This document shows, piece by piece, positions 10,503 through 48,343 of a stretch of DNA of 53,694 nt. The translations under genes and the position numbers were made by a program. How positions within the stretch are numbered: the first letter of the stretch is position 1; each line of letters starts with the position of its first letter. Under the pieces are notes generated by a model. The model searched no databases. It saw only the letters and a program-made list of their open reading frames with translations, and was not told the origin of the DNA. The stretch is taken from positions 1 to 53,694 of IMG/VR virus record IMGVR_UViG_3300026382_000022. The stretch is one strand, 5' to 3'. Source of the stretch: a virus. Its lineage: Duplodnaviria > Caudoviricetes.

Positions 10503-11194
10503 TATTTATCCTTTAGTACTTTACCAAATTCCCAAGAATATGCTGGTATCTTTTTACCGTCCATAACTATATAACCATGTTCCATCCAACCAAATATTCT
10601 ACCTTTTATAACAAAAGAAAATACTTTAGCAGGATCTAAAGTTTGGTTAAATTTATAATTAAAATTATATGCAGGGTTTCTTAAAGTCCACCAGAACACA
10701 CTCCAGAATTCATATAATGGACATCTAGATCTATTATCACCAAGATCAAATGTATTACCTTTTATATCGGAATTATCAGCATATTCAACTGCTTTTTTAA
10801 GTTTTTCAACTATGAATTCAGGCATCCATTTTTTTCTTTCTTTATTAATAATAGTTAAGTTAAAACCTTTACTATATGTATCCTCATTAGCATCATCATC
10901 TAACAATAGCCAAAATGGTAATAAGAAATAATATTGTAATGTATTAACTTTATTCTTTTTAACAAAACCATCAATATTACCATGTCCGTGATTAAATAAT
11001 ATCCAACCACCTAACACTCTCTTAGGTTCTCTTTCCCAAAGTCTTTTTAATATAATACCATTTTCTAAATGATAGTTATAAATTCTATTTCTAAGATATG
11101 CTCTAAAAGGTATAACTAAGAAAATGAATGGAAAAACTATACGTCTAATAATCACTGTAAATAATACAAATAAATAATATGAATACTTATACAT
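10502..11194 (-). CDS. Membrane-associated phage protein (W-x-x-RNPAYNF family)
   Basis: Hydrophobic N-terminus; WLLLDDD...DTY, FDLGD.R and FWWTLRNPAYNF motifs; paralog at 46666..47328. Confidence 0.55.
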   Translation of the reverse strand: MYKYSYYLFVLFTVIIRRIVFPFIFLVIPFRAYLRNRIYNYHLENGIILKRLWEREPKRVLGGWILFNHGHGNIDGFVKKNKVNTLQYYFLLPFWLLLDDDANEDTYSKGFNLTIINKERKKWMPEFIVEKLKKAVEYADNSDIKGNTFDLGDNRSRCPLYEFWSVFWWTLRNPAYNFNYKFNQTLDPAKVFSFVIKGRIFGWMEHGYIVMDGKKIPAYSWEFGKVLKDK

Positions 11195-11196
11195 AA

Positions 11197-11427
11197 TTAC
11201 TCCTCTACTTTAGTTTCGAAATGACTTTTTAAAATTAATGTTAACGCACCGAATACAGCACCAACTATCACATTTAATGTCATAGGATCAATACCTTTAA
11301 CATCATTAATCCAAGTAGGACTAACTATTAACCAAGCTAAATACATAAAAAATGCTAAAACTATATATCTAGCGCCTAATTTAATATTAGGTTTTTTACA
11401 ATCACATTTTTTCTTTTCTTCACTCAT
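11197..11427 (-). CDS. Holin-like small membrane protein
   Basis: 76 aa, two TM helices, charged termini, located in lysis cassette. Confidence 0.5.
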   Translation of the reverse strand: MSEEKKKCDCKKPNIKLGARYIVLAFFMYLAWLIVSPTWINDVKGIDPMTLNVIVGAVFGALTLILKSHFETKVEE

Positions 11428-12064
11428 GGTTTAACTCCTCTTTTAATTTGTCACAATCTATAATCATAGACTGTAATTTGTATATATTATTATCATTAGG
11501 TATTTTAAAACATTGTTGAAAATCTTTATATTTTAAAATCTTATAATAATCTTTTGGTATTTGTATATCTTTAAACTTTTCTTCAGTATATGTAATTATA
11601 GTTAAAACATCTATATAAGGGTACTCAGTAGCTAAAGTTCTAATATAGTCCTCTACTACCAGATAACTATATTTATTCGTTCTAGGGTACTGCAATGTAA
11701 CATTAGACATAACATATGTCTCTTTTAAAGATCTTATAGAAAAATCCTGACTAGCATCAGACACTATAGTATGTCCTAAATTAAAATTAGAATTTTTAAA
11801 TTTAGAAGAATACACTCTATATTTTCTAGGTATTCTAGTATCAGATCTAAAATAATATTTTGTTGTAATATTATATTTATTAACTTTATCATCTAACCTA
11901 ACATACCCAGCTATAGGTGATTTATAATTTAAATCATAACATACATTATAATACCTATTAACTAATAATACCTCACAATTATCTATATACTCTTTTTTTA
12001 AATCTGTGAACATACCAGCTATCAATAATACTGGTAACCAAACTAACACTAAAATCTTTCTCAT
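11420..12064 (-). CDS. Secreted DNA/RNA non-specific endonuclease (NucA/Endonuclease_NS family)
   Basis: Signal peptide MRKILVLVWLPVLLIA; F..D.RIP...R, xxGH (NLGH), TY.MSN...Q...N and IPK.YYK motifs. Confidence 0.8.
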   Translation of the reverse strand: MRKILVLVWLPVLLIAGMFTDLKKEYIDNCEVLLVNRYYNVCYDLNYKSPIAGYVRLDDKVNKYNITTKYYFRSDTRIPRKYRVYSSKFKNSNFNLGHTIVSDASQDFSIRSLKETYVMSNVTLQYPRTNKYSYLVVEDYIRTLATEYPYIDVLTIITYTEEKFKDIQIPKDYYKILKYKDFQQCFKIPNDNNIYKLQSMIIDCDKLKEELNHE

Positions 12065-12456
12065 GAATATTCTGTCCTTATTTTATTATTTTCTATATAA
12101 ATTTTCTTTATTAAACTAACACCATTAGGTACATCACCTGATAATGTAAAGATTATTAAATTCTCATTTCGCATATCAGTTATCTTAGTTATTACTTTAT
12201 CATCAGGTAATAAATACTTAGTAACATAGTAATCATCATTACTTGTATCTACAATATAAGGGAAACTTAATATATTTTGTGCTATGATTTCATATGTTGC
12301 TGGCAACACTACTGTTTTAATATTTTCAGTTATTTCATCGCCAGTTATGTTATCTTCATCACCATTACAATTATCTAAAAGATTACATAATGGATAGTTA
12401 TTAGTTGCTAATAATTTAAGATTATTTAATTTTTCTACTAATAATTCATTCATCAT
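12061..12456 (-). CDS. Hypothetical protein
   Basis: 131-aa ORF, translationally coupled to neighbours. Confidence 0.5.
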   Translation of the reverse strand: MMNELLVEKLNNLKLLATNNYPLCNLLDNCNGDEDNITGDEITENIKTVVLPATYEIIAQNILSFPYIVDTSNDDYYVTKYLLPDDKVITKITDMRNENLIIFTLSGDVPNGVSLIKKIYIENNKIRTEYS

Positions 12457-12946
12457 TATTATGTCCTAATCTATGTTTAGATAATCTATACATATCAGCA
12501 GGTGATAGATCAGATGGTGTAACATCAATATATTCATCTACTAATAATAGTTGTAAAATTTTACTAGCTATCTCACTACAGAACCATTTATTCTTATCAT
12601 CCATACCTAATTTAATAAATTGTGATAAAAATATACCACACATATCATATGGGTTACCATCTCTTTCAAATATAAATTTATAAATTTTATCATATTGTTC
12701 ATCAGTAACCAATATTTTACCAAAATCTATAATTGTCCATTTATCAGTTATATATGGTTTAAGTGGGTGTATGTAAATACCTTCTTTAGGATCTGCAGAG
12801 ATCCACATATTATCTAAAATTAATTCTACATGATAATGTATACCTTTAGTTCTAACTTGTATACCTTTAGCTATTATTTTATCTATCATAGTAGCATCAT
12901 CACTAACTTTATGTTTTAAAGCTATTTTAACTTCCATACTTTTCAT
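12446..12946 (-). CDS. Permuted papain-like NlpC/P60 enzyme (YiiX/YaeF-like)
   Basis: His-before-Cys order: HYHVEL ... G.PYD..G ... KWFCSEI ... SP.D; start MKSM with AAGGA RBS. Confidence 0.8.
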   Translation of the reverse strand: MKSMEVKIALKHKVSDDATMIDKIIAKGIQVRTKGIHYHVELILDNMWISADPKEGIYIHPLKPYITDKWTIIDFGKILVTDEQYDKIYKFIFERDGNPYDMCGIFLSQFIKLGMDDKNKWFCSEIASKILQLLLVDEYIDVTPSDLSPADMYRLSKHRLGHNNDE

Positions 12947-12983
12947 ATTGAATTCCTTATTTGTATTCAAAAAAAAGAGATAT

Positions 12984-13012
12984 ACACTACTAGCTATATT
13001 AGCTAGTAGTGT
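12984..13012 (-). terminator. Intrinsic terminator after endolysin
   Basis: ACACTACTAGCT-atatt-AGCTAGTAGTGT stem followed on the minus strand by a T-rich run. Confidence 0.7.
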
Positions 13013-13014
13013 GT

Positions 13015-13644
13015 TTAATACAGATTATCTAATCTATTATTCCAACCTTTTAAATATAAAAGATATTTATCAGGATTAGAAACAACTAAGTCAGCATAAT
13101 ATCTACGCATATTAGAAATAGTTTCAAACTTAAAAACATAAGTCATTAATGGTTTATTAAAATCTAAAGACTCTAAAGCATTTTTAGTTTTAGTACCATA
13201 CTGACCATCTACAGTTGAGAGTTGTTCTTTAGGTATATCTAAAATATTAGATTTTTGTAAATGTATCAATGTTCTTTGTATAGATTTCCAAGTACCTGTT
13301 ATAGAATTAGTATAGAGATTAAAAATCATTATTTGTAACTCTTTAGGAAATAGTTCTAAATGAGCACCATAAAGATACCTATCGTAAAATTCACTTAACA
13401 TGACTTTTATCATAGTTTTATCTAAATGTTGATCTACTAGATCTATTTCTTCTTTAGTCCATTCTGAAGAAGGTGTTTCTATATTTAAAGTAGAAGCAAC
13501 TGTATCTATATAACTAAATATAGCTGCATCACCATGTGCTTTTCTATATACACCACCTGGTGTGGTGATATCATCTTCAGTAGAATTTCTGTGTAAATAT
13601 TCACCTTCTACTTTTAAAATGTAATTCAATAACTCATCTGTCAT
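13015..13644 (-). CDS. Endolysin, GH108-like lysozyme with C-terminal PG_binding_3-like motif
   Basis: N-terminal ILKVEG.Y...T..GGV, 'VDGQYGTKT' and terminal 'YLKGWNNRL'; start MTDEL with AAGGA RBS. Confidence 0.75.
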   Translation of the reverse strand: MTDELLNYILKVEGEYLHRNSTEDDITTPGGVYRKAHGDAAIFSYIDTVASTLNIETPSSEWTKEEIDLVDQHLDKTMIKVMLSEFYDRYLYGAHLELFPKELQIMIFNLYTNSITGTWKSIQRTLIHLQKSNILDIPKEQLSTVDGQYGTKTKNALESLDFNKPLMTYVFKFETISNMRRYYADLVVSNPDKYLLYLKGWNNRLDNLY

Positions 13645-17899: not shown

Positions 17900-18472
17900 T
17901 TAAAATTTAAAATTTGTACTAAAATATTTATTAGTATTAAAATCTGCATTACTTAAAGCAGTATCACCAATGATAGGTACATAAACTATATTTAAATTAT
18001 ATGTAACTAAATTACTTCTAACTTTACCAACAACACTACCATAAATAGTTATTGTATCTGTAGTGTCAACACCATCACTAATATCTGGTGCTCTATATTT
18101 AAAAGTACCATTAGTATTATTTATATTACTTATAGTGCCCTTATCTACAGTTATCTCATAAACTGTACCAGGTACATGATTAGTTATATTAACACTAATT
18201 TCTTCATTTTCATTTATACCAGTTGGTATATCTAAAACAGGACTAGGTGCAATAGGTAATAAATCTAAAATATTATCTACAGTAACCAACTCATTAGCAG
18301 GAACACCACCAACTTTTAAAGTATTGACAGCCTGTTGTACTAGTAATCCTACAGGAGTGCCGTCTATCAATGTAGCCATTCCATTAGAAGCTATTAAAAC
18401 TTCTCCAAAACTTAATTTTCTATTATTATAAACTAAATATCCATCTCTACTTAGTCTCCAAGTATCAGCCAT
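17900..18472 (-). CDS. Tail fibre-associated protein, paralog of 18491..19099
   Basis: Shared DG.LV, TLKVGGV.A....T and D.AL.N.D...NK.....F.F/Y motifs. Confidence 0.55.
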   Translation of the reverse strand: MADTWRLSRDGYLVYNNRKLSFGEVLIASNGMATLIDGTPVGLLVQQAVNTLKVGGVPANELVTVDNILDLLPIAPSPVLDIPTGINENEEISVNITNHVPGTVYEITVDKGTISNINNTNGTFKYRAPDISDGVDTTDTITIYGSVVGKVRSNLVTYNLNIVYVPIIGDTALSNADFNTNKYFSTNFKF

Positions 18473-18490
18473 AATTATTCCTTATATTTT

Positions 18491-19099
18491 TTAATATTCA
18501 AATCCATCATTATAATCTTTATTAGCTTTATAATCAGGATTAACTAATGCTTGATCTGCTCTAACATTATCAGTATATATGTTTATATTTTTACTAAATG
18601 TATCAGATCTAATACAGCCTTTATCTATAGCTATAACATTTAAAGTAGTTATTACATCAGAATCTAATTCTGGTGTAACTAATTTTATTTCACCAGCAGC
18701 AGTAATACTAACATCACCCACTACACTAGTAGCTTGGTATAAAAATTCACTATTATAATTTTCTATAGTACCAACTAATGTATCACCACCATTTACACCA
18801 TCACCAATAGTAATTATTGGTGTTTCAGTAACTGGTATAGTGTCTCTATAATTTAATTTAGTTAAAACATTTTCTGCTAAAACTCCACCTACTTTAAGTG
18901 TATCATCAGCTAGTAATGCTCTTTGAGCTATCTCGGTTTCATCATTAAAGATATCTCCTAATAGATTAGCAATATCTATAATATTATTATATCCATCTAT
19001 TAGTTTACCGTCATTATATCTTATAAATTCACCTAACTTTACTTTGGTATCTTGAAAAACAAGATTACCATCTTTATCAACTCTCATCTTTACAGACAT
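18491..19099 (-). CDS. Tail fibre-associated protein, paralog of 17900..18472
   Basis: Same shared motifs; AAGGAG RBS; first gene of the fibre operon. Confidence 0.55.
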   Translation of the reverse strand: MSVKMRVDKDGNLVFQDTKVKLGEFIRYNDGKLIDGYNNIIDIANLLGDIFNDETEIAQRALLADDTLKVGGVLAENVLTKLNYRDTIPVTETPIITIGDGVNGGDTLVGTIENYNSEFLYQATSVVGDVSITAAGEIKLVTPELDSDVITTLNVIAIDKGCIRSDTFSKNINIYTDNVRADQALVNPDYKANKDYNDGFEY

Positions 19100-20743: not shown

Positions 20744-22780
20744 TTATTTTATAATTTCAGTACTTGTTAGACTACCATAGTAATCTAAAATAGTTTCGTT
20801 AGGCTTCACTAAAGTATCTAATAAGTGATCACTTCTCTTTTGATCAGAAAATGATCTAGGGTCAGCAATTTGTTTTGGTACTCTTTGGTAAGCATATCCT
20901 GAACCTAAACTTCTATTAGAGACAACATCCATAATACCAGCCATTTGTGGATTATCACAAAATCTACCTAATCTATAATCTCTTTCTTTTAAAGACACCA
21001 CTGTAAACGCATAGACTATAACTTCAATAACTGCTATATTAACTTCTAGTTTACTATTAACAGTATCGAATATTTTTTGTAATAAAGACTCTCTAGTCTC
21101 TATACTATATTCACCTTTTACAGTCTTTACAGATTTTAACATAGACTTAACTTGACTAGCTAAAACTATATAACTAAATTCTATTTGTGGTAGTTTTAAT
21201 ATAGGTAAATTAGACTTCCATTTATTTAGATTTATCACATATCTATCACGAGCATCTAAAGTATATCCTACTTGTACTATGTATTCTAGAAATTTATATG
21301 TGAACGAACCTTTTTTACTTCCATCTTTAACTACTATAGGATAATATTCAGTTTTACCATTTTTTTCTATAGATAAAATGAATGACTCTATTCTAGATAT
21401 TCTAGCTGGATCAAACTTTAGCATGTTTTTACCAGAAATTATATCTTTTAAACCAAATGCATTGGACTGTGATACTATTAAATTTATATTAACATCTTTA
21501 TTAATAATACCTTTTTTAAATGCATACCCATCGTTATCTTTAATGATGAAAAACTTATCAGCAGTGGCGTCTAAAGAGATGGTAGTAGAAGTAGCGGTAC
21601 CTGTTAAGTGTTTAGTAGATAAAATACTTTGTGTGAATTTTTGTGTTAATGTAGCTGCTGATATGTGACCTATGTTAGTATGTTCATGTATACTATAAAA
21701 TAATTCACCATAACAAGCTTTACATATTTTGTGTTTATTGTTATGTTTACAATGTAACACACTTCTAATTAAAATAGTTTTACCTATAAGATGTGTATCT
21801 GTAGATTTTATAAACCCACATTCCTCACTTTTAGGCATTTTATAATATTTACCAACTAAGTTATTTAAATCACTTTTACCAGAAACATTCTCCTCACCAG
21901 ATCTAACATACCATTCTAAATATTCTGTGTTACCACAATCACAGTCATCTACCTGTTCTACCTCCATACAAACTAATTGTAACTCTCTAGCAAAATATTC
22001 GCTATCCTGAATTGCTTTATCTGCTAGAAATAGTGCCTTAGCTGCTGATCTAGATTCAGCGCTAATATCATACATACTATTCATACCTAATGTAAATGAA
22101 GTAGCTAATGGTTTCTTAAAAATACTACCATCCATCTCAGAAACATAACCTCTAGATGCTAAAACTTGTTTAGCCTGGTTAGCATTAATCTGTCCAGAAA
22201 TATAACTTCTAGCTAATGGTGATGATTTTATTCTCTCATCACTATACATTATTTTATCTAAAATTTTATATGACTCTTCTATACTATCAGGAGTTTCTTC
22301 ATTAGATACTTTCTGCATAGCTTTTATTAATTCAGGATCTAATTGTATTTCCAAAAGATCTAAGATATTCATAGATGATGAAAAGTTCAAATTATAATAA
22401 ACAACTTCATTATAAATTAAATTTAATATCTGATACATTCTTTCATAAAGCTGATCTCTGAATGATAAATTATTACCAGGTATTAAAATATTTTGTATCA
22501 TATCTTTAAATATGACTTCAAATACTTTATTAATACTTTTAGATGTGAATATATTATTACTGTAATAATTAGAAATATTATATTCAGATTTAATGGGTAA
22601 CTCTGGTATTAATAAAATTAATTCCCACAAATATCTATTCATTATCATCTCTGATGATTTTACTTCACATACTTTATTATCCTCGAATAATATGTGATTA
22701 GTACTTCTATAACCACGTAACATCTCTAGTCTATCTATACCCATAAATTCTCTTACTGGTATCGCTTTTATTTTACCCAT
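20744..22780 (-). CDS. Non-virion RNA polymerase beta' subunit (C-terminal part), phiKZ gp74-like
   Basis: Q...RG, ESRSA.KAL, SEYFARELQL, DCG, RS...C...ICKACYG and TQSILSTKH motifs. Confidence 0.9.
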   Translation of the reverse strand: MGKIKAIPVREFMGIDRLEMLRGYRSTNHILFEDNKVCEVKSSEMIMNRYLWELILLIPELPIKSEYNISNYYSNNIFTSKSINKVFEVIFKDMIQNILIPGNNLSFRDQLYERMYQILNLIYNEVVYYNLNFSSSMNILDLLEIQLDPELIKAMQKVSNEETPDSIEESYKILDKIMYSDERIKSSPLARSYISGQINANQAKQVLASRGYVSEMDGSIFKKPLATSFTLGMNSMYDISAESRSAAKALFLADKAIQDSEYFARELQLVCMEVEQVDDCDCGNTEYLEWYVRSGEENVSGKSDLNNLVGKYYKMPKSEECGFIKSTDTHLIGKTILIRSVLHCKHNNKHKICKACYGELFYSIHEHTNIGHISAATLTQKFTQSILSTKHLTGTATSTTISLDATADKFFIIKDNDGYAFKKGIINKDVNINLIVSQSNAFGLKDIISGKNMLKFDPARISRIESFILSIEKNGKTEYYPIVVKDGSKKGSFTYKFLEYIVQVGYTLDARDRYVINLNKWKSNLPILKLPQIEFSYIVLASQVKSMLKSVKTVKGEYSIETRESLLQKIFDTVNSKLEVNIAVIEVIVYAFTVVSLKERDYRLGRFCDNPQMAGIMDVVSNRSLGSGYAYQRVPKQIADPRSFSDQKRSDHLLDTLVKPNETILDYYGSLTSTEIIK

Positions 22781-22853
22781 TACATACTCCTGCTCATAGT
22801 CAAATTCATTTAATATACGTATGTATAATTTTAATACACGGCATATCTCTATA

Positions 22854-22876
22854 TTAGTGATATATGGTTATAAAAT
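22854..22876 (-). promoter_or_regulatory. Early (virion-RNAP type) promoter motif
   Basis: Minus strand ATTTTATAACCATATATCACTAA upstream of the beta' gene; resembles phiKZ early consensus TATATTAC. Confidence 0.7.
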
Positions 22877-22933
22877 ACTCCAAACTAAAATTTTAAATAG
22901 TTTATTGAATTTAACTTTTTTAAGGAGTCTACC

Positions 22934-23557
22934 ATGCACGATAATAAAATAATTATAGACTCTATCAAAAATACTATAAATGATATATCATACGATAAAA
23001 AACGGCTTAATAAAATAATTGAGTCCATAAATAAAGGTGATGTGACTATAGATATAAATGATAGATTAATAAATAATTTAAATAATTTAGAAATTGAAGA
23101 TAGTGTTATAGAAACAGCATTTGAATACTTAACACTAATATTAAGTAATTTAGAATCACAAAAAATAAATAATACTAAAAATGTTACTAACGAAATGATC
23201 GTTATATTAACACATGTGCTTAATGGTGTTAGAAATTTAGAATACTGTGCATTACAACTAACTAATGAAATAGAAGAACATAAAATTAAACTATTAGAGT
23301 ATAAAGAAAAAAATAGTGTAGCTATAAAAGAACCATCTGTTGATAGTACAAAAAAAGAAAATAATAAATCTGATATGCTTAAATCTTTTTTACCTAATAA
23401 TAAGGTTTCTAATATAGTAGTATGGCTTATGGGTTTTATATTGTTTTTAGTTATTTTATTTAAAATTGATAATATAGCTACTTCTAAAAGTTTAGAATCA
23501 ACTTCCGAATTATTACATAATATTAAAGGAAAAGAAAATGTTACAAAAAATAGATAA
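22934..23557 (+). CDS. Coiled-coil protein with C-terminal TM helix, first gene of two-component module
   Basis: AAGGAG RBS; helical N-part; TM 'IVVWLMGFILFLVILF'; overlaps the response regulator gene. Confidence 0.65.
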   Translation: MHDNKIIIDSIKNTINDISYDKKRLNKIIESINKGDVTIDINDRLINNLNNLEIEDSVIETAFEYLTLILSNLESQKINNTKNVTNEMIVILTHVLNGVRNLEYCALQLTNEIEEHKIKLLEYKEKNSVAIKEPSVDSTKKENNKSDMLKSFLPNNKVSNIVVWLMGFILFLVILFKIDNIATSKSLESTSELLHNIKGKENVTKNR

Positions 23558-24104
23558 TATCGTATATAAATATCTAGATAAAGAGTATTTAGATACTATA
23601 GAAGGTTTAGATATAGATTATGATCCATCTAAACCTACCATAGTTATAGCTGATGATTTTTCATCTATAATTTCATTATTTAAAAAACTAATGAAAAGAG
23701 CTAAACTAATAGATAAATTTAATATTATTTATCTAGAAGGTACATTAGCTCCAGTTATTTTATTAAAAACATTATTAAAATATCCTGAAATTAAAATAGA
23801 TATTATAATAACTGATATAACGTTTGGGCTAATGGGTATTGATAAAGATAAGCATAAAAAATTTATAGATGGTATCTTTATAACTAAAATACTAAAAGAA
23901 TATAATGATGATATGGTGTATCTATTTGTAACAGGTCACATCATTAATAAAAGCTCTACTCATGAATATTACGATGAATATAAAGAATTTTCTAACGATG
24001 AACTTTTAGACCATGTAGTTTATAAAGATACACCAATTTCTACTAATCTTTCTTTAATAGAAAACTTATTTAAAGGAACAGAGTTTGAAAAATATATTAA
24101 ATAA
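23538..24104 (+). CDS. Single-domain response regulator (receiver domain)
   Basis: IVIADD acidic pocket, IDIIITDI phospho-Asp, 'DG', FVTG and VYK motifs; no output domain. Confidence 0.85.
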   Translation: MLQKIDNIVYKYLDKEYLDTIEGLDIDYDPSKPTIVIADDFSSIISLFKKLMKRAKLIDKFNIIYLEGTLAPVILLKTLLKYPEIKIDIIITDITFGLMGIDKDKHKKFIDGIFITKILKEYNDDMVYLFVTGHIINKSSTHEYYDEYKEFSNDELLDHVVYKDTPISTNLSLIENLFKGTEFEKYIK

Positions 24105-25425
24105 AATAAAATTTAAAAATCTAGAAAATTGGATAAAAGCATTTAAGATAACTTTCATGTATGCTAATATATTACTTATTCTGATCATTATAACTAACGG
24201 TATGCTCATGTACACTACTGATAAATTAATTTCTAAAACTGTCATATCTGCTATAGATACTTTTTATAGTATAAATGATGAAAAAATTAAAAATAATTTA
24301 TTAGACACATATTTAAAAGATCTTGGTGATACATTTTACATATTATATAAAGATGATAAAGTGGTAAAAAGCAATATAAGTAGTGATCTTTACTATAGTG
24401 AACATACAGATGATCATATTAAAAAATGTATATTTGTTAATAACGATATATATTTAAAAACAAGAACTAAAGATATGGTGCTGTATGTACCAATAGTTTC
24501 TATTAATAAAGATCATTTTATAATAATGATAATATTTTATTTTCTTTTTATAATTTTAATTACTGCAATGTTAAATAAGTTAGTTTTTAAAGAAAGAAAT
24601 AGTTATTTAGAAGCTATAACATCTAAAGAAAGAGAATTACATAGAGAGATATTAACTAACATAGCTCTTAATATTAATCATGAAATGAATAGTCCCTTAT
24701 TAGTAATAAGAAGCATTTTTGATGAAATAAGATATGTGTTACATGAAGAACTTAATAAAAAGAAACAATGTCCGTATAATGACAATGAATGCGTTAGTGA
24801 TTTTGTAGAAGTAATAAATGATGTTTTAAATGATATTGACTTAGGTGAAGATAGTTTAGAATCTATATACAGTATCATAAGACCTTTAGGTGATTATAAG
24901 AGTATCGAATATAGTAATGGTAATAAGAACTTCTATATGCTAATACAATCTGCCATAAATATGATTAAATATAATAAATCTTATTTAATAAATGATATAG
25001 CTATAGATGAAACATTAGAAAAATATTCTTTATACCATGATAATGGTATGACTAATGGAACATTCTTAACTATGGTTATCAACCATATAAAAAATAGTTT
25101 AGAAGCTAATGCTGACAAACTTAAATTCTATATACAAAAAATAGATGAAAAATATATTTATTTAGCTATAGAAGATAATGGTAACGGTATACCAAAAAAA
25201 ATAGTTAAAGATATATTTAATGTTAACATAACCAGTAAAGCTGATATTAGTAAATACGAACGAGGTGTTGGTATGTATATTAATAAAATTTTACTTAAAG
25301 AAAAATATGATGGTGATGTTTGGGTTGAATATACTGAAACTAATAAAGGAACTATATTTATATTAAAAATTAGATATGAACCTTTTAAATACTACAATGA
25401 TGGTGTAAACCATATTAAAAAATAA
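24085..25425 (+). CDS. Membrane sensor histidine kinase
   Basis: Two TM helices flanking an ~100-aa extracytoplasmic region; H-box NHEMNSPL, N-box NHIKNSLEA, G1 IEDNGNGI, F-box IFN, G2 GVGMYI. Confidence 0.92.
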   Translation: MKNILNKIKFKNLENWIKAFKITFMYANILLILIIITNGMLMYTTDKLISKTVISAIDTFYSINDEKIKNNLLDTYLKDLGDTFYILYKDDKVVKSNISSDLYYSEHTDDHIKKCIFVNNDIYLKTRTKDMVLYVPIVSINKDHFIIMIIFYFLFIILITAMLNKLVFKERNSYLEAITSKERELHREILTNIALNINHEMNSPLLVIRSIFDEIRYVLHEELNKKKQCPYNDNECVSDFVEVINDVLNDIDLGEDSLESIYSIIRPLGDYKSIEYSNGNKNFYMLIQSAINMIKYNKSYLINDIAIDETLEKYSLYHDNGMTNGTFLTMVINHIKNSLEANADKLKFYIQKIDEKYIYLAIEDNGNGIPKKIVKDIFNVNITSKADISKYERGVGMYINKILLKEKYDGDVWVEYTETNKGTIFILKIRYEPFKYYNDGVNHIKK

Positions 25426-25427
25426 CA

Positions 25428-25459
25428 TATACTAAGTAGCATATTAGCTACTTAGTATA
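25428..25459. terminator. Inverted repeat, probable bidirectional terminator
   Basis: TATACTAAGTAGC-atatta-GCTACTTAGTATA between convergent kinase and RNAP beta genes. Confidence 0.7.
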
Positions 25460-25464
25460 GTTAA

Positions 25465-27606
25465 TTAATCTTCTTTACTGTATACTATTTCAATACCAGA
25501 GGCATTGAAAATACTTTCTACTAACTTAAGACCAACATCACCACCATAAGGTAGTTTATTCCTATCAATAATAGTATCTATATTAGTAGGAGTATCTGAT
25601 CTAAGTATCGTGTTATAGATAGTCTCATGTGTTTTAGGACTACTAGCTCTATCTTTAAGTTCAGCAATAGCTTTACGACCACCATAGGCAGCTATTAACC
25701 TAACCTCAGTTTCACCAAGAACCCTAGTAGCACTATTTTTATAGTTTATATTTGGTCTATCGAATTTAGATACACCAACTGGTAACCCGTAATGGTTTGC
25801 TTTAGCTGATGCTGCTGATAAAAAGTTATCTGCATTTTTAGATAAACATATCATATACAATGGTGCTATCAGTATATCCTCTAGAGAAGTTTTAACTGTA
25901 CCATCAATATTAAATAGTAATTTACCTATCTTAGGTGCATAGATACTATTGTGTATTTCTGTAACAATACTATAAGCCTTTTTCTCATTAGATACTTTAT
26001 AATAGATATAGAATTCTTTTTCTATAATCTCTAAAAGTATAGTTCTTTTAACTTCTAATGAATTAACCGCAGAATAAGCTTCATATTGTTCATTACCAAT
26101 AATTCTTAATAAACCTAGAATATGGTCGAATAAAGTATTAATAGTATTATCATTAGCATTTTCTACTAATTCAATATTACTAATATTATCTTTATTATTA
26201 CCAATTAATGTTGTTTTAACATGGTGTTGTATTTCTCTAGAAGTTGCTGAGAAATATTGTATATATAATTTAGCTAAGTTCATACGACCAATAGTAGATG
26301 TACTATCTGCTATAATATCTGCTCTATTACCATATTCATCTATAGGCATCTGATCATCTGGTAATATACTAACAATAACACCTTTACCACCATTAAGACA
26401 ACTTAATTTAAGTCCTTTCTTACCTTTAATAACATGTTCCACAACAAATGTTACACGGAAAAGATCTAATTCTTGCTTCTTAAAAGTTTTCTTTAGCTTA
26501 ACTCCTTCTTTATTAACCATAGCATATGCCTCTACCATAAGTCTTGAAAGTTTTTCACTTGTAGGTAATTGCCAGTTACGAACTCTGTGATAATGTTCTT
26601 TCTGAACTTTTTCATAAACGTCTATCAATTTTTCATAATAGTTGATTAAACTTTTATTATATTTCTCAGCTATCTCATTAACACCTGTGTATATAGATTT
26701 TTTAAATCTATCGTTAGTATGTACTATTATGTCTACTACTTTACCTTTAGGATGTTTAGTATAGAAAGGTTTATCAAACACACTATCATATTCTAGAACA
26801 TCTTTCTTAGATATAAGTGCTGGTGCTAGTTCTGTATTATATTTTCTTAAAGCTATAATAACACCATCTTCATTAACATACTCACCTATCTCTGGAAATG
26901 GTTTATAATTATCCTCATCACCATATAAGTTTAAAGGAAAACTATCTGAACCATATTCAATAGTTATCGTTTCAAATGTTTTATGTTCTAGCTTTTCAGC
27001 ATATGATTCGGATATAACAAAACCATCTTCAGCAACCTCAGGCATAGTCATTAAAGCCAAGTTAGCATTTAATCCAAACCCGAATCCGTTATTTTCTTTA
27101 ACTGATGGTGAAGTAGCTAATACAGTTCCTGCTGGGATTACATAACCAGGTACTAATGATTCTAATAGTTCATAATTCCATTTATATTTAAAACCATAAT
27201 TTTGATGTATATTAAATTTATATGGTACTGAATAATAATCTATCTCCCCTGTAATTAAATCTTCATAAACTATAACTATTTCAGCTATAGCGTTAACTTC
27301 ATCAGCAGAAATACCACTATATCTATCTATAACAGCGATCACTCTAGAATCATGCTCAGCTTTAACATTCCATACATTATCAGCTAGTTGTCTCTCTAAC
27401 CCAGTTTGTACTATTGGTTCTTCACCATGCTCTAGTGTTACTGTTTGTGATAAATGTGCTGCCATCATAACATTTCTAGATGCACTATTATAATTAGTAA
27501 ATGGGTTAATAGCATGTATAGATAATAACTCCTCTTGTACTGGTAATCCTTCTAACTCTTTTTCTCTATCGAAAATATTTCCTGTCACTGGTATATTATA
27601 ACTCAT
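25465..27606 (-). CDS. Non-virion RNA polymerase beta subunit (C-terminal part), phiKZ gp71-73-like
   Basis: NPF...NSASR..M...HLSQ, EDGFVISES, KL....GGKGV, P.DE.GNRADII, RMN and RVLGETE motifs. Confidence 0.92.
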   Translation of the reverse strand: MSYNIPVTGNIFDREKELEGLPVQEELLSIHAINPFTNYNSASRNVMMAAHLSQTVTLEHGEEPIVQTGLERQLADNVWNVKAEHDSRVIAVIDRYSGISADEVNAIAEIVIVYEDLITGEIDYYSVPYKFNIHQNYGFKYKWNYELLESLVPGYVIPAGTVLATSPSVKENNGFGFGLNANLALMTMPEVAEDGFVISESYAEKLEHKTFETITIEYGSDSFPLNLYGDEDNYKPFPEIGEYVNEDGVIIALRKYNTELAPALISKKDVLEYDSVFDKPFYTKHPKGKVVDIIVHTNDRFKKSIYTGVNEIAEKYNKSLINYYEKLIDVYEKVQKEHYHRVRNWQLPTSEKLSRLMVEAYAMVNKEGVKLKKTFKKQELDLFRVTFVVEHVIKGKKGLKLSCLNGGKGVIVSILPDDQMPIDEYGNRADIIADSTSTIGRMNLAKLYIQYFSATSREIQHHVKTTLIGNNKDNISNIELVENANDNTINTLFDHILGLLRIIGNEQYEAYSAVNSLEVKRTILLEIIEKEFYIYYKVSNEKKAYSIVTEIHNSIYAPKIGKLLFNIDGTVKTSLEDILIAPLYMICLSKNADNFLSAASAKANHYGLPVGVSKFDRPNINYKNSATRVLGETEVRLIAAYGGRKAIAELKDRASSPKTHETIYNTILRSDTPTNIDTIIDRNKLPYGGDVGLKLVESIFNASGIEIVYSKED

Positions 27607-28342: not shown

Positions 28343-28376
28343 AACACTAGTAGAACTTATAAGTTCTACTAGTGTT
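28343..28376. terminator. Perfect 34-bp palindrome between convergent genes
   Basis: AACACTAGTAGAACTTA|TAAGTTCTACTAGTGTT. Confidence 0.7.
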
Positions 28377-28875
28377 AACTACGTCTATCAAATTCTTGTT
28401 TCTTATACCACTTTGCTTTTTCAGAAGATAATTTTTTACTAATATAAATCATAAGATCATCTTTAGTTTCATAATCTTTTAAATTAGCTATAGCAAAAAC
28501 ACACTGATCTATTTCATCAATATTTGGTTTATCTTTAGTAAATATAGCAAACTCATCACCGCCTATACGAAAATAATCACCCTTAGGAAATTGTTTTTTA
28601 ATTTCATTGGCTACATTAATTATTAGTTTATCGCCAGCAGTATAACCAAATTTATTATTTGTATAATGTAATCTATTAATATCAACTATAGTTAAATAGA
28701 TATCTTCAGTACTATTGTTATAATCTATAAATGCTAATTCATAATCTCTTCTTAATAACAATCCTGTTAATAAGTCATATTTATAAATTTCTAGTTGTTT
28801 TTCTAAATAATTTATTTTCTTTTTTAATAAGCTATTCTCTTCTGTGAGTAACGTGGACATATTAGTGATCTTCAT
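28375..28875 (-). CDS. GGDEF-domain protein (putative diguanylate cyclase) with N-terminal coiled coil
   Basis: DLLTGL, D.N.L...N..FG..AGD and RIGGDEF motifs; likely start MKITN with AGGA RBS. Confidence 0.88.
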   Translation of the reverse strand: MKITNMSTLLTEENSLLKKKINYLEKQLEIYKYDLLTGLLLRRDYELAFIDYNNSTEDIYLTIVDINRLHYTNNKFGYTAGDKLIINVANEIKKQFPKGDYFRIGGDEFAIFTKDKPNIDEIDQCVFAIANLKDYETKDDLMIYISKKLSSEKAKWYKKQEFDRRS

Positions 28876-28933
28876 TTTTATTCCTAGTTTGTATATATTC
28901 AATTAATTTAATGTTAAAAAAAAAAGGATACTT

Positions 28934-29674
28934 ATGTTATATACCTCTTATATGGGTAATTTAAAAAATATTAAAGAAAAGAAAATAGCTATAATGCGTT
29001 TTTTACCAGATTGGAGTAAACCATATATAGACTCTAATTATATTAAATTAGCACCTAGTAAAGACTTATTAACAAAATATAAAGATAAAATAGTGAACTA
29101 TGAAGAATTTAAATTAAAATATTTAGAAGAAATTAAAGATATTGATATTAAAAAACTTTATAAGAAATTTAAAAATACTACATTGTTATGCACTTGTAAA
29201 CCTGGTATTGGTTGTCATAGACATATATTAGCAGAACACTTAATAAACAATGGTTATATGGTTAAAGAAAAAGATATAGATCGTGTACTTAAAAATATTA
29301 AAGTTAAAATATTTAAAAAGGTAACACCGAATACTGTAAATAAAAATAAAGATATCTATTTTCTATACACCGATAGTTTATTAAAAGAAAAGAAAAATCA
29401 TTTTAGAGATTTAGATAACACATTACCTATTACGATTAAAAGAAGTGATAAGAACGTGTATAACAGATTTTTAAATGATAGTGAGTATCATAGTAGTATT
29501 TTAGAGAAAGATGTCTATATGGTACTTCTAAAAGCCATACAGGGATATGTTATAGGTATATCTGAAGATTTCTTTAATACAGATTTAAAAGATCTAAGAG
29601 ATCATGCTCCATTATTATATATAATGGTGTATACAAGAATAAGAAATAAAATAGAAAATAAAAAAATATACTAG
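28934..29674 (+). CDS. DUF488-like protein with additional C-terminal domain
   Basis: YTSY, LAPS..LL and LLC.CKP...CHRHILAE.L motifs. Confidence 0.75.
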   Translation: MLYTSYMGNLKNIKEKKIAIMRFLPDWSKPYIDSNYIKLAPSKDLLTKYKDKIVNYEEFKLKYLEEIKDIDIKKLYKKFKNTTLLCTCKPGIGCHRHILAEHLINNGYMVKEKDIDRVLKNIKVKIFKKVTPNTVNKNKDIYFLYTDSLLKEKKNHFRDLDNTLPITIKRSDKNVYNRFLNDSEYHSSILEKDVYMVLLKAIQGYVIGISEDFFNTDLKDLRDHAPLLYIMVYTRIRNKIENKKIY

Positions 29675-30015: not shown

Positions 30016-30033
30016 ATGCGCTATCTGTATGCA

Positions 30034-31446
30034 CTATCTAAATCTATTTATACCACTAGGTCTAACTTGTTGTGGTTGTTGCTGATACATAGGTTGTTGT
30101 TGATACATAGGTTGTTGTTGCATCATAGGTTGCTGCATCATAGGCTGTTGCATCATAGGTTGCTGCATCATAGGTTGTTGTTGCATCATAGGTTGTTGTC
30201 TATTAACACCCATTGGTTGCGCTTGTTGTACCTGTTGTTGATATACAGGTTGCACCATTTGTTGTGGTTGCATTTGTGGCATTTGTTGTTGCACTGGTTG
30301 CACAGGAACACCACCACCATATAATAGTTTTTGCTCTAATGTTAACTCAGGAGGCTGTACTGCTTGTTGTGGTTGTGCTGTTTGTTGTTGTACCACTTGT
30401 TGTTGTCCCACAGGAGCTTGTTGTGTTACAGTTTTAACATCTTTAGTCATAGCATTAGCTAATGCTTGGTTAGTATTAGCATTATTAGCTGTAGCTTTCA
30501 TACGGTTAATATCTAAGTCACTAGGGATAGTTAAAAGTTCTGAAGAGAATTTAGATAACTCATTAAGTTCTTTTTGTGCTATTTTAAGATTAAACTTATT
30601 TTCATCAACAGTTTTCTCATCCACAAATTTTAGTAACTTTAATAGCGTGTTGAATCTATTAGCTACTTTAAGGAATAATGTAAATAGTGCTATGAATCCA
30701 GGAGACTCATTGTCATTACTACCTACAGTGATAGTGTTGTTTTCATCCATATCTTTAAAAACATATTTATAAAGAACTTTGAACACTTTGATATCTTTAG
30801 GTCTTAATCTAAAACCAGAAATCTTAGTTTCTTTATCAGCTTCTTCTAACGCTTCTAATAACGGGAATGTTAGCACTGCTAATCTGTTATATTTAACTCC
30901 TTTATAGTTACCAGTCTTTTTAAGATACAGTTTAACTAGTTTAGGATTAACAGATGACTCAAACGATTTAGCATATAGTTTAACCCAAGTATCTATAGAT
31001 TTAGGATCTATAATTTCTTTAGTTCTACCATTATCAGCTACGGATAAGCTAGAGATAAATTTATTCAACTCTAGAGGAGTTTTAGTTTGTAGCTCTTTTT
31101 TCATACCTAGTTCTAAAAGAAGTTCACCTATAGCCGAAAATGCATGTGCTATTTTAGCTTCAACTATATCTTTAGTTTTCTTTAAAGAAACTGTATCTCC
31201 TTTAATAACATCCTCATTAAGAGGATTATATAAAACTTTAGTAGTTTTAAGTTCACCATTTTCATCTGGTTCATTAAGAGTATCGATGTGTTCTTTTAGT
31301 GGTAACACCATTGGTTTACCATTAACTGTGAATAGTACAGATTTACCATTACCTGGATCAATCTTTATATAACCTTCTTCATCATACTCAATACCTAGTG
31401 ATGTTAAAACATCTTTATAAAAATCTATTAAATTATTATGTTGCAT
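30034..31446 (-). CDS. Conserved phiKZ gp70-like protein with Gln/Pro/Met-rich C-terminal tail
   Basis: GK..VLP, NPL.ED and LKK.G...G.KY.R motifs; position between gp69-like gene and RNAP beta. Confidence 0.6.
   Translation of the reverse strand: MQHNNLIDFYKDVLTSLGIEYDEEGYIKIDPGNGKSVLFTVNGKPMVLPLKEHIDTLNEPDENGELKTTKVLYNPLNEDVIKGDTVSLKKTKDIVEAKIAHAFSAIGELLLELGMKKELQTKTPLELNKFISSLSVADNGRTKEIIDPKSIDTWVKLYAKSFESSVNPKLVKLYLKKTGNYKGVKYNRLAVLTFPLLEALEEADKETKISGFRLRPKDIKVFKVLYKYVFKDMDENNTITVGSNDNESPGFIALFTLFLKVANRFNTLLKLLKFVDEKTVDENKFNLKIAQKELNELSKFSSELLTIPSDLDINRMKATANNANTNQALANAMTKDVKTVTQQAPVGQQQVVQQQTAQPQQAVQPPELTLEQKLLYGGGVPVQPVQQQMPQMQPQQMVQPVYQQQVQQAQPMGVNRQQPMMQQQPMMQQPMMQQPMMQQPMMQQQPMYQQQPMYQQQPQQVRPSGINRFR
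30070..30200 (-). repeat. 15/18-bp tandem repeats encoding (Q)QQPMM / QQQPMY
   Basis: GCATCATAGG(T/C)TG recurring on the + strand. Confidence 0.9.
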
Positions 31447-47797: not shown

Positions 47798-48343
47798 CTA
47801 ATCATTTAATCCACAATGCAATAGCTCATATAGATAATCACCATAATATGATCCGTCACACCAGTCATATTTTTCATCAGAGACATCTTCTTCATTAGTA
47901 AGATTATCTAAGTTATAATCTTCAATACAATTTTTATATTCAACTAGTGACTCTTTAATATTTTTGAATTCTAAATATATATCTGATGTCTCTTTAATAT
48001 CTACTTCCCTAGTTATATCTTCGTTATATAAGAAAATACTACCACTTTTAATATATGGTTTTAAAAGCAATATTAGATTTTCTATATCATTATCTTTATT
48101 CTTGTTACCAATACACACATCTAGTAGGACATCATTAACATTACTTATATCTATATTTTTTTTAAGATTATCTGTGAAAGTATTATCTAAGAAATCACAT
48201 CTAGAATTTTTAATCATACCATCTGGTAGGTTTAAAGTATCTAATTTCTCTTCTTTAACTTGTTTTAACCATTTAACTATATCTGGTCTATCACCAAGAT
48301 CTAATTTAAGATCTTTAAATCTACACTCATAATATGTACTCAT
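47798..48343 (-). CDS. Acidic hypothetical protein coupled to the nuclease gene
   Basis: ATGA overlap with 48340..51024; AAAGGA RBS. Confidence 0.6.
   Translation of the reverse strand: MSTYYECRFKDLKLDLGDRPDIVKWLKQVKEEKLDTLNLPDGMIKNSRCDFLDNTFTDNLKKNIDISNVNDVLLDVCIGNKNKDNDIENLILLLKPYIKSGSIFLYNEDITREVDIKETSDIYLEFKNIKESLVEYKNCIEDYNLDNLTNEEDVSDEKYDWCDGSYYGDYLYELLHCGLND

Follow-up and report, generated by a model that had tools for sequence, protein, structure and literature searches.

The viral record IMGVR_UViG_3300026382_000022 was analysed over positions 1 to 53,694: this 53.7-kb stretch, referred to below as the window, is a piece of a phage genome, estimated to be about 22% complete, with a guanine-plus-cytosine (GC) content of 28.1%. 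Amid minus-strand genes, three co-oriented open reading frames (ORFs) are found on its plus strand, each overlapping the next by 20 nucleotides (nt), and are referred to as the module: ORF1 (22934-23557) encodes a helical protein of 207 amino acids (aa) with a C-terminal membrane span; ORF2 (23538-24104) a stand-alone receiver of 188 aa; ORF3 (24085-25425), starting with TTG, a sensor histidine kinase of 446 aa. Ribosome-binding motifs precede ORF1 (AAGGAG) and ORF3 (AAGGA). To judge from sequence, the three genes probably make up a two-component operon belonging to the phage lineage, which would sense a periplasmic cue and be kept by selection in large phages. What is new is the family that they represent: kinase, receiver and membrane protein constitute a phage-specific variant of two-component signalling, common to many large phages. 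An earlier, sequence-only reading of this DNA had described three overlapping genes, for a membrane-anchored protein, a receiver and a kinase with two transmembrane (TM) helices; ORFs, motifs and structural models all lead to the same complete pair, accompanied by a membrane partner.

The kinase, ORF3, matches Pfam HATPase_c (E 3.3e-13; 50.5 bits, against a cut-off of 26.4) and contains two hydrophobic spans (residues ~17-43 and 140-169). Its parts follow one another as TM1 (nt ~24148-24213), a periplasmic segment of ~100 aa (24214-24519), TM2 (24520-24585), the DHp domain (24592-24909), which includes H199 (24679-24681) and a Cys-bearing hairpin loop (24766-24795), and the CA domain (24931-25383). 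All boxes are present: H199-E200, N333/N337, D364-G366-G368, F378 and G394-G396. When 59 family members are aligned (window ORF3, ten locus proteins and 48 of the 59 non-self database matches), no variation is seen at H199, E200, N337, D364, G394 and G396; the H-box (H199-E200...P204) is invariant or nearly so, and lines up with that of kinases of known structure. Over DHp and CA, the family profile can be aligned to HK853 (2c2a, 3dge) and other solved histidine kinases; among the 60 PDB chains listed at E<=1e-3, a few weak ones at the bottom are MutL and topoisomerase VI-B. In the AlphaFold model (mean predicted local distance difference test, pLDDT, 77; above 90 in the CA domain), TM1 is followed by a small alpha/beta periplasmic part, by TM2, continuous with the first DHp helix, by the second DHp helix and by the CA domain; H199 sits in the long helix 137-227. 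The residues C229-P-Y...C236, described in the sequence-only reading as an insert after the H-box helix, are indeed there, as the loop 228-237 between the two DHp helices, but this Cys-bearing loop is a variable feature rather than a family signature, since its length ranges from 8 to 61 residues and at least two Cys are found in 20 of the 59 members.

ORF2 features D39-D40, the acceptor D93 (nt 23814-23816), T132 and K163, and adds to the receiver a 33-aa N-terminal extension, a beta-hairpin (98-110) following D93 and short C-terminal helices. A full HMMER search of 1.84 billion representatives yields 88 relatives at E<=1e-3, all but one 179-308 aa long. When window ORF2 and 45 of these are aligned, D40, N62, D93, G112 and K163 are invariant in the 46 sequences, while D39 and T132 are found in at least 90%. 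Searched against the PDB, the ORF2 profile matches receiver-type chains only, the best being RR468 (E 5e-4): 39 out of 40 are named response regulator, CheY, Spo0F, NtrC, RcsB or FixJ, and the remaining one "adenylate cyclase homolog". The model (pLDDT 97; predicted template modelling score 0.91) displays a (beta-alpha)5 receiver fold, with the five key residues at the ends of strands 1, 3, 4 and 5. Its top Foldseek matches in the PDB are all receivers (HupR, Spo0F, RcsB, CheY, DesR, RR468), with target TM-scores of 0.65-0.73 for isolated receiver domains; the BFVD matches are receivers of viral kinases and regulators, from giant viruses and some uncultured phages, at 24% identity or less. A DNA-binding output domain of the OmpR, NarL or LytTR type was not found: about 25 residues, without Pfam match, follow the receiver. 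The description of ORF2 as a regulator lacking a DNA-binding output is therefore accurate for this 188-aa protein, where only short helices come after the receiver domain.

Relatives of the kinase were found, by an alignment-based scan of IMG/VR, in 25 loci; scans with single sequences gave nothing. One more locus, L046, on an 82-kb contig, was added by a metagenome scan with the ORF1 alignment, for a total of 26 other loci; a corresponding scan with the receiver alignment produced 597 pattern matches, none of them a relative. Immediately before the kinase gene, 23 of the 25 IMG/VR loci encode a receiver relative, as does L046 (24 out of 26); the receiver is missing from L026 and from L010, a locus truncated by the end of its contig. 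A helical, C-terminally anchored protein is located upstream of the receiver in 21 of the 25 loci, and again in L046: the profile used to recognize it was built from the same loci, so that these counts describe architecture more than independent homology. L012 encodes, in addition, a 172-aa protein of the same build, missed by the profile. Start and stop codons of neighbouring module genes often overlap or abut. Looked for in phage and bacterial genomes alike, the cluster appears in the former, while the cellular genomes searched gave only two tiny contigs of metagenome-assembled genomes (MAGs), with parts of the family. Its spread over several lineages of large phages does not agree with the suggestion that the module is peculiar to a phiKZ-like phage. 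In the cultured-phage records of INPHARED no DNA or protein match was found for module, kinase or receiver.

Two of these loci are syntenic with the window: in L002, a 107-kb record, and in L046, genes for a helicase, the RNA polymerase beta' subunit, ORF1, receiver and kinase follow the window order, and L002 also carries the beta gene further on. Gene decay was looked for in these relatives, and all three module genes are intact in both. Identity to the window is, for L002 and L046 respectively, 36% and 43% for ORF1, 47% and 42% for the receiver, 46% and 41% for the kinase, 65% and 56% for beta', 54% and 49% for the helicase; the module values (36-47%) fall inside the range of the neighbouring phage genes (34-65%). 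The same site, the intact genes and a divergence like that of the neighbours indicate that the module is inherited with the phage, and has been kept over deep divergence. The remaining carriers are not closely related to the window, and the genes around their modules are different ones, for a DNA polymerase of family B, for a ClpX-like protein or for beta and beta' fused into a single protein (1,453 aa). Of ten carrier records tested with the window beta subunit, only L002 matched strongly, and six records estimated to be 100% complete (110-223 kb) gave no match or a weak one. Carriers with complete genomes include L003, L005, L006 and L009.

Some features of the more distant loci are worth recording. 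The N-terminal extension of the receiver, short and Cys-free in the window, is 49-103 aa long in lineages other than that of the window; at least four Cys are present in it in 6 of 22 locus proteins (L005, L007, L008, L013, L014, L019) and in 8 of 44 database proteins, and this Cys-rich form may be a metal-binding module. In L006 (9182-9778) and L019 (8846-9457) an extra protein of about 200 aa, with hydrophobic ends and a Cys-rich middle, is encoded between receiver and kinase. L003 (3029-7390) and L004 (3174-7487), both complete or large phage records, encode a single protein of 1,437-1,453 aa joining beta (Rpb2 3, 6) and beta' (Rpb1 1, 2), 1.6 kb upstream of the module. A functional link to RNA polymerase was considered, as the window and L002, L046, L003, L004 and L026 all have polymerase genes close to the module, and was rejected, complete carriers existing without a phiKZ-type beta subunit. 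In L008, L012, L014 and L017 the divergent upstream neighbour of the module is a gene for a ClpX-like ATPase with an N-terminal zinc-ribbon motif; a link to ClpX was likewise discarded, these four related loci being taken as one lineage.

In the window, the module lies between the two genes of an RNA polymerase, both on the minus strand: a beta'-like gene (20744-22780; 678 aa; PHROG 3015, E 1e-142), which matches proteins annotated as beta prime in the Ralstonia phages RP12, RP31 and FLC1-1B, and a beta-like gene (25465-27606; 713 aa; PHROG 3295, E 1e-172; Pfam RNA_pol_Rpb2_6). In nine cultured-phage records (RP12, RP31, FLC1-1B, FLC4-3B, FLC9, LucasX, AgentSmith, RSL2, RsoM3USA) the two polymerase matches are on the same strand and 113-489 nt apart. 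As no more than about 0.5 kb separates them there, the 2.7 kb found in the window are an insertion relative to those phages, and the module does split, as had been proposed, a normally contiguous core block. On the left, the divergent intergenic region between the beta'-like gene and ORF1 (22781-22933) contains AAGGAG at 22922-22927, 6 nt before the ORF1 ATG; aligned with the two syntenic relatives, it shows AT-rich conserved blocks (three sequences only), and promoter-like matches are not above the shuffled expectation (27 found, 34 expected). On the right, a hairpin with a perfect 13-bp stem (25428-25459) separates the convergent kinase and polymerase genes. The sequence-only reading had assigned it to the module as its own terminator: a hairpin is present, but it is shared by the two convergent genes, with the T-run on the minus-strand side. 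In L002, the gap between kinase and beta also holds a gene for an NAD-dependent DNA ligase (11186-13138, minus strand; Pfam 5.6e-74) and a 481-aa gene; judged from this record, the site between kinase and beta gene appears to collect cargo.

The way in which the three proteins may work together can be outlined. From its topology, ORF3 would be located in the inner membrane and read a cue through the ~100-residue periplasmic segment between its two TM helices. The intact residues and the strict pairing of the genes suggest that it autophosphorylates on H199 and that the phosphoryl group passes to D93 of ORF2. Phosphorylated ORF2 would then act by binding another protein: lacking a DNA-binding or enzymatic output, it would have to operate through protein contact, and signalling of this kind, already put forward in the sequence-only reading, is the natural interpretation of a receiver without output domain. 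Gene linkage makes ORF1 the best candidate partner, since its gene is just upstream, overlaps that of ORF2 and accompanies the pair in most phages.

ORF1 has a single hydrophobic span, close to its C-terminus (residues ~156-183; nt ~23399-23482), and no signal peptide, and is therefore predicted to be tail-anchored, with a cytoplasmic N-terminal domain. It matches no Pfam, PHROG, NCBIfam or PADLOC family; five homologues were found among 5.8 billion proteins, and close relatives share an invariant EYLTLILSN.E.QKI core. A search of the Atlas with ORF1 gave no lead (best score 0.81, structural TM below 0.5). The complex predicted for the receiver and residues 1-130 of ORF1 scored 0.14, relative to a mark of 0.32, with controls not run. 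A role of ORF1 as a histidine phosphotransfer protein was considered and rejected: H94 is invariant only among seven close relatives, and no column is invariant in the wider family.

In part of the loci the operon is longer. Downstream of the kinase, a protein of ~90-135 aa that bears a signal peptide and the motif K(G/S)W.R is encoded in 10 of the 25 IMG/VR loci, and a protein of ~370-420 aa, recognized by the barrel profile and having a signal peptide and a C-terminal aromatic residue, in 8. L046, which belongs to the lineage of the window, features both, as a 123-aa secreted protein and a 402-aa barrel (barrel profile 2.7e-28). One of the barrels matches Pfam DUF3373 above the cut-off (2.4e-6); in the Atlas, the L046 barrel reaches 0.98 against porin clusters and 0.96 against one of DUF3373, which is to be taken as a lead, not as a test. 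Because the operon of these relatives adds a secreted protein and a porin-like barrel, the fuller system would span the whole Gram-negative envelope; the window phage carries its three-gene core. The proposal, contained in the sequence-only reading, of a periplasmic or envelope cue fits both the two-TM topology and these downstream genes. It is possible, if doubtful, that large phages of several lineages install in this way an envelope-spanning sensory pathway of their own, composed of porin, periplasmic protein, kinase, receiver and anchored effector.

A number of results weigh against the interpretation of the module as a sensory two-component operon of the phage. Neither signalling protein reaches the expected Pfam family: ORF3 has no HisKA match at the gathering score, a relative scoring 17.3 bits where 26.9 are required (PF00512 appears in the precomputed annotation of three database relatives), while ORF2 has no Pfam match, Response_reg included, for which a relative scores 16.9 bits against 30.2. 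Both are therefore divergent. The periplasmic part of ORF3 is modelled at a pLDDT of 47-70, and no ligand-binding fold was identified in it. Profile comparison ties ORF1 weakly to its counterparts in other phages (hhalign probability 47%, E 1.9e-4), and ORF1 is not found by a hidden Markov model of the tail-anchored proteins of the other phages, built leaving it out; with homology across lineages so weak, the upstream anchored proteins of other phages may be analogous to ORF1, rather than the same protein. Finally, single-sequence searches, made without a positive control, matched no barrel in the window, in the L002 record or in three complete carriers: as neither the window, which is 22% of a genome, nor these carriers show one, the envelope-spanning form is not universal. 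As far as the barrel search goes, the three genes would be the core, and the porin pair an addition or a loss.

The same divergence bears on the idea that the folds are kept for a structural task, such as a membrane scaffold or a repurposed ATPase, with no signalling by phosphorylation. The scores below the HisKA and Response_reg cut-offs would fit with it, as would the unusual hairpin directly after the acceptor Asp and the long, variable DHp loop. The residues required for ATP binding and for phosphorylation on His and Asp, in contrast, vary little or not at all in the 59 kinases and 46 receivers, otherwise only 20-45% identical, which is hard to explain without catalysis; such a role is thus quite improbable. 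A module directed at the host, where the phage kinase phosphorylates host regulators, or the receiver drains host kinases, reprogramming envelope or metabolic genes, seems unlikely. Single-domain receivers can serve as phosphate sinks, and no output domain was found in ORF2; phage phoR and phoB genes, moreover, have been reported, together with a model of phage PhoR acting on host PhoB (PMC10987575). Kinase and receiver, on the other hand, are phage-specific families, strictly co-inherited, as expected of a closed cognate pair more than of an interface with many hosts, and no curated host kinase family is reached by ORF3 (the best NCBIfam score is 33 bits, for a cut-off of 520).

Still less can be said for a recent capture of host genes, or for an assembly chimera joining host DNA to a phage contig, either of which deserves next to no credit. 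The position of the module, on the opposite strand and interrupting a conserved gene pair, might suggest such an origin. Its GC content, however, is 22.0%, compared with 28.1% in the window and 27.8% and 29.9% in the flanking genes: it is more AT-rich than the phage, as the sequence-only reading had it, and not host-like. Two diverged relatives, assembled independently, carry the three genes intact at this site, with a divergence like that of the phage genes around them. The view that the module is not a recent host capture is thereby upheld. Near-identity to a host locus was looked for, and none was seen. A pattern scan of one genome for each of 185,579 species returned 16 loci: a single full-length family kinase, on a 2,032-bp MAG contig with a receiver fragment upstream; a fragment, on a 1,402-bp contig of another MAG; and 14 loci with generic DHp/CA parts only and no family receiver. 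The receiver profile matched none of 401 Campylobacterota genomes at E<=1e-8, and found, as a positive control, the 2-kb MAG contig at 7.8e-29. The largest contig carrying any of 60 kinase relatives measures 291,556 bp. Cellular searches being samples, limited by the pattern used, the family is to be described as not found in the cells searched, rather than absent from cells; as far as they go, the lack of a cellular counterpart adds to the evidence that already contradicts a recent host capture.

The assembly was compared with contigs from three sequencing runs, X1, X2 and X4, labelled as hydrothermal vent metagenomes; X1 and X2 may be the samples from which the record derives. Contigs of X1 (4,170 nt) and X2 (5,529 nt) run from ORF1 into the polymerase gene, with no differences from 22844 onwards; another X1 contig (22448-22870) reaches across the left junction or the break in it. 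Contigs of X1 and X2 break at 22844-22870, which might be seen as an indication of a false joint, but an X4 contig covers 22775-22943 without differences and crosses the break, so that both junctions are bridged by independent contigs. Several alternative joints and loose ends also map within 23060-24600, which, with the shared break, suggests that related phage strains with variant versions of the module co-occur in these samples.

The reading preferred here remains that of a two-component operon serving the phage. The pair has diverged into a family of its own, with all catalytic residues kept; large phages unrelated to one another carry it in their complete genomes, and cells hardly do; together with the membrane partner, this points to a sensory function serving the phage itself. 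With the envelope-spanning pathway raised above as a doubtful possibility, a lytic phage could detect a cue outside the cell or in the periplasm and tune to it, with no need of a host regulator, such things as lysis timing, the shutting out of other phages or the speed of its replication; the family would then form a branch of two-component signalling specific to viruses. Lysis timing and a superinfection response, suggested in the sequence-only reading, are speculative. Where phages are known to base decisions on sensing, it is mostly temperate phages that do so, through receptors for peptides or quorum signals; H199 and D93 are clear handles, by point mutation, on the cues that a virulent jumbo phage uses. 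The link to a porin may also explain some of the outer-membrane proteins catalogued in huge phages.

Among characterized systems, the Thermotoga pair HK853-RR468 (PDB 3dge) is similar in plan: a class I kinase with two TM helices, DHp and CA has a stand-alone receiver as its partner. HK853 is among the structures to which the kinase profile aligns, and RR468 is both the best PDB sequence match of ORF2 and one of its fold matches. Identity to the phage pair is only ~15-18%, however, and the phage proteins differ in several respects: the receiver adds the N-terminal extension, the hairpin after the acceptor Asp and the C-terminal helices; the kinase lacks HAMP, and its DHp loop is long and often contains Cys; the module is phage-encoded and joined to a tail-anchored protein. 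In the Rcs/RcsF, Cpx/NlpE and QseE/QseG systems, envelope sensing relies on an outer-membrane or periplasmic protein feeding an inner-membrane kinase. The five-gene phage form, in which the kinase gene is accompanied by those for a barrel and a small periplasmic protein, is alike in this, suggesting an accessory-assisted sensor; no sequence relation to these systems was found, the phage partner is a porin-like barrel and not a lipoprotein, and the window itself lacks the genes for secreted protein and barrel.

To our knowledge, two-component genes carried by phages have until now been regarded as auxiliary genes derived from the host. PhoB is a DNA-binding regulator. Soil-phage phoR auxiliary genes are described as clustering with reference proteins of bacterial phyla (PMC10987575), and a histidine kinase is located beside an outer-membrane pore gene in the curli (type VIII secretion system, T8SS) clusters of pelagiphages (PMC9599517). 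As in the module, kinase or regulator genes are thus carried by phages; unlike phoR/phoB as described there, the module family lacks a DNA-binding output, keeps a three-gene order of its own, and is without a cellular counterpart in the genomes searched. The jumbo-phage cREC proteins, divergent members of the receiver fold, are said by Iyer et al. 2021 (PMC7824862) to be never linked to histidine kinases and to be tied to NAD/ADP-ribose enzymes; ORF2 relatives, in contrast, adjoin a kinase in nearly all loci, and ORF2 does not fit that description of cREC. With phoR/phoB, pelagiphage kinases and the viral receivers of BFVD reported, viral two-component parts are already known; this family and operon were not found described in the literature searched. 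A term search of the main text of the 2020 huge-phage paper found no mention of kinases. In a 2026 preprint, 1,603 barrel proteins are listed among the envelope proteins of huge phages; its main text does not contain "histidine kinase", "two-component", "response regulator" or "sensor" (10.64898/2026.10.24.761521). PADLOC gave no match for the module, and nothing in NCBIfam came near any cut-off.

As for the carrier, products of the window match PHROGs 3015, 3295, 3520, 3141, 3209, 3229 and 3227, which we take to be typical of phiKZ-like phages; a terminase, an endolysin and an Rz-like spanin are also encoded, by family matches. Phage records matching the two polymerase genes number 314 and 311, led by jumbo phages of Burkholderia, Ralstonia and Pseudomonas; the closest cultured matches, at ~30% identity, are jumbo phages of Burkholderia, Ralstonia, Pseudomonas and Xanthomonas. 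On the strength of its polymerase, PHROG, spanin and cultured-phage matches, the carrier is classified as a distant phiKZ-like phage of a probably Gram-negative host. The vent label of X1 and X2, the low GC content, the spanin and the DUF3373-like porin are hints of such a host, which may belong to Campylobacterota.

A few other genes of the window may be mentioned. A minus-strand gene (28375-28902) encodes 175 aa, with an N-terminal coiled coil followed by a GGDEF domain that is short but has the motif (Pfam 2.6e-11, covering 3-104 of the 161 profile positions). The sequence-only reading had listed its product among the possible targets of the module; this link was dropped, as the search of 25 other loci showed no GGDEF homologue close to the module. 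The next gene (28934-29674, plus strand) encodes a fusion of DUF488-N3a and DUF7831 (Pfam 1.2e-11 and 2.5e-8), present in L002 too, at 40% identity. The PHROG 3520 protein (30034-31446, minus strand) bears a long Q/P/M-rich C-terminal repeat (QQPMMQQ...), whose opposite strand yields a spurious ORF of H/L/R repeats (30016-30324). Adjoining the terminase gene, an 894-aa protein (48340-51024, minus strand) matches the HNH/homing-endonuclease PHROGs 559 and 681 in 5 stretches and PHROG 4605 in 11, and looks like a repeat-rich endonuclease. Two adjacent paralogues of ~200 aa, grouped by all-against-all clustering, are encoded on the minus strand at 17900-18472 and 18491-19099, and are duplicated in L002 too.

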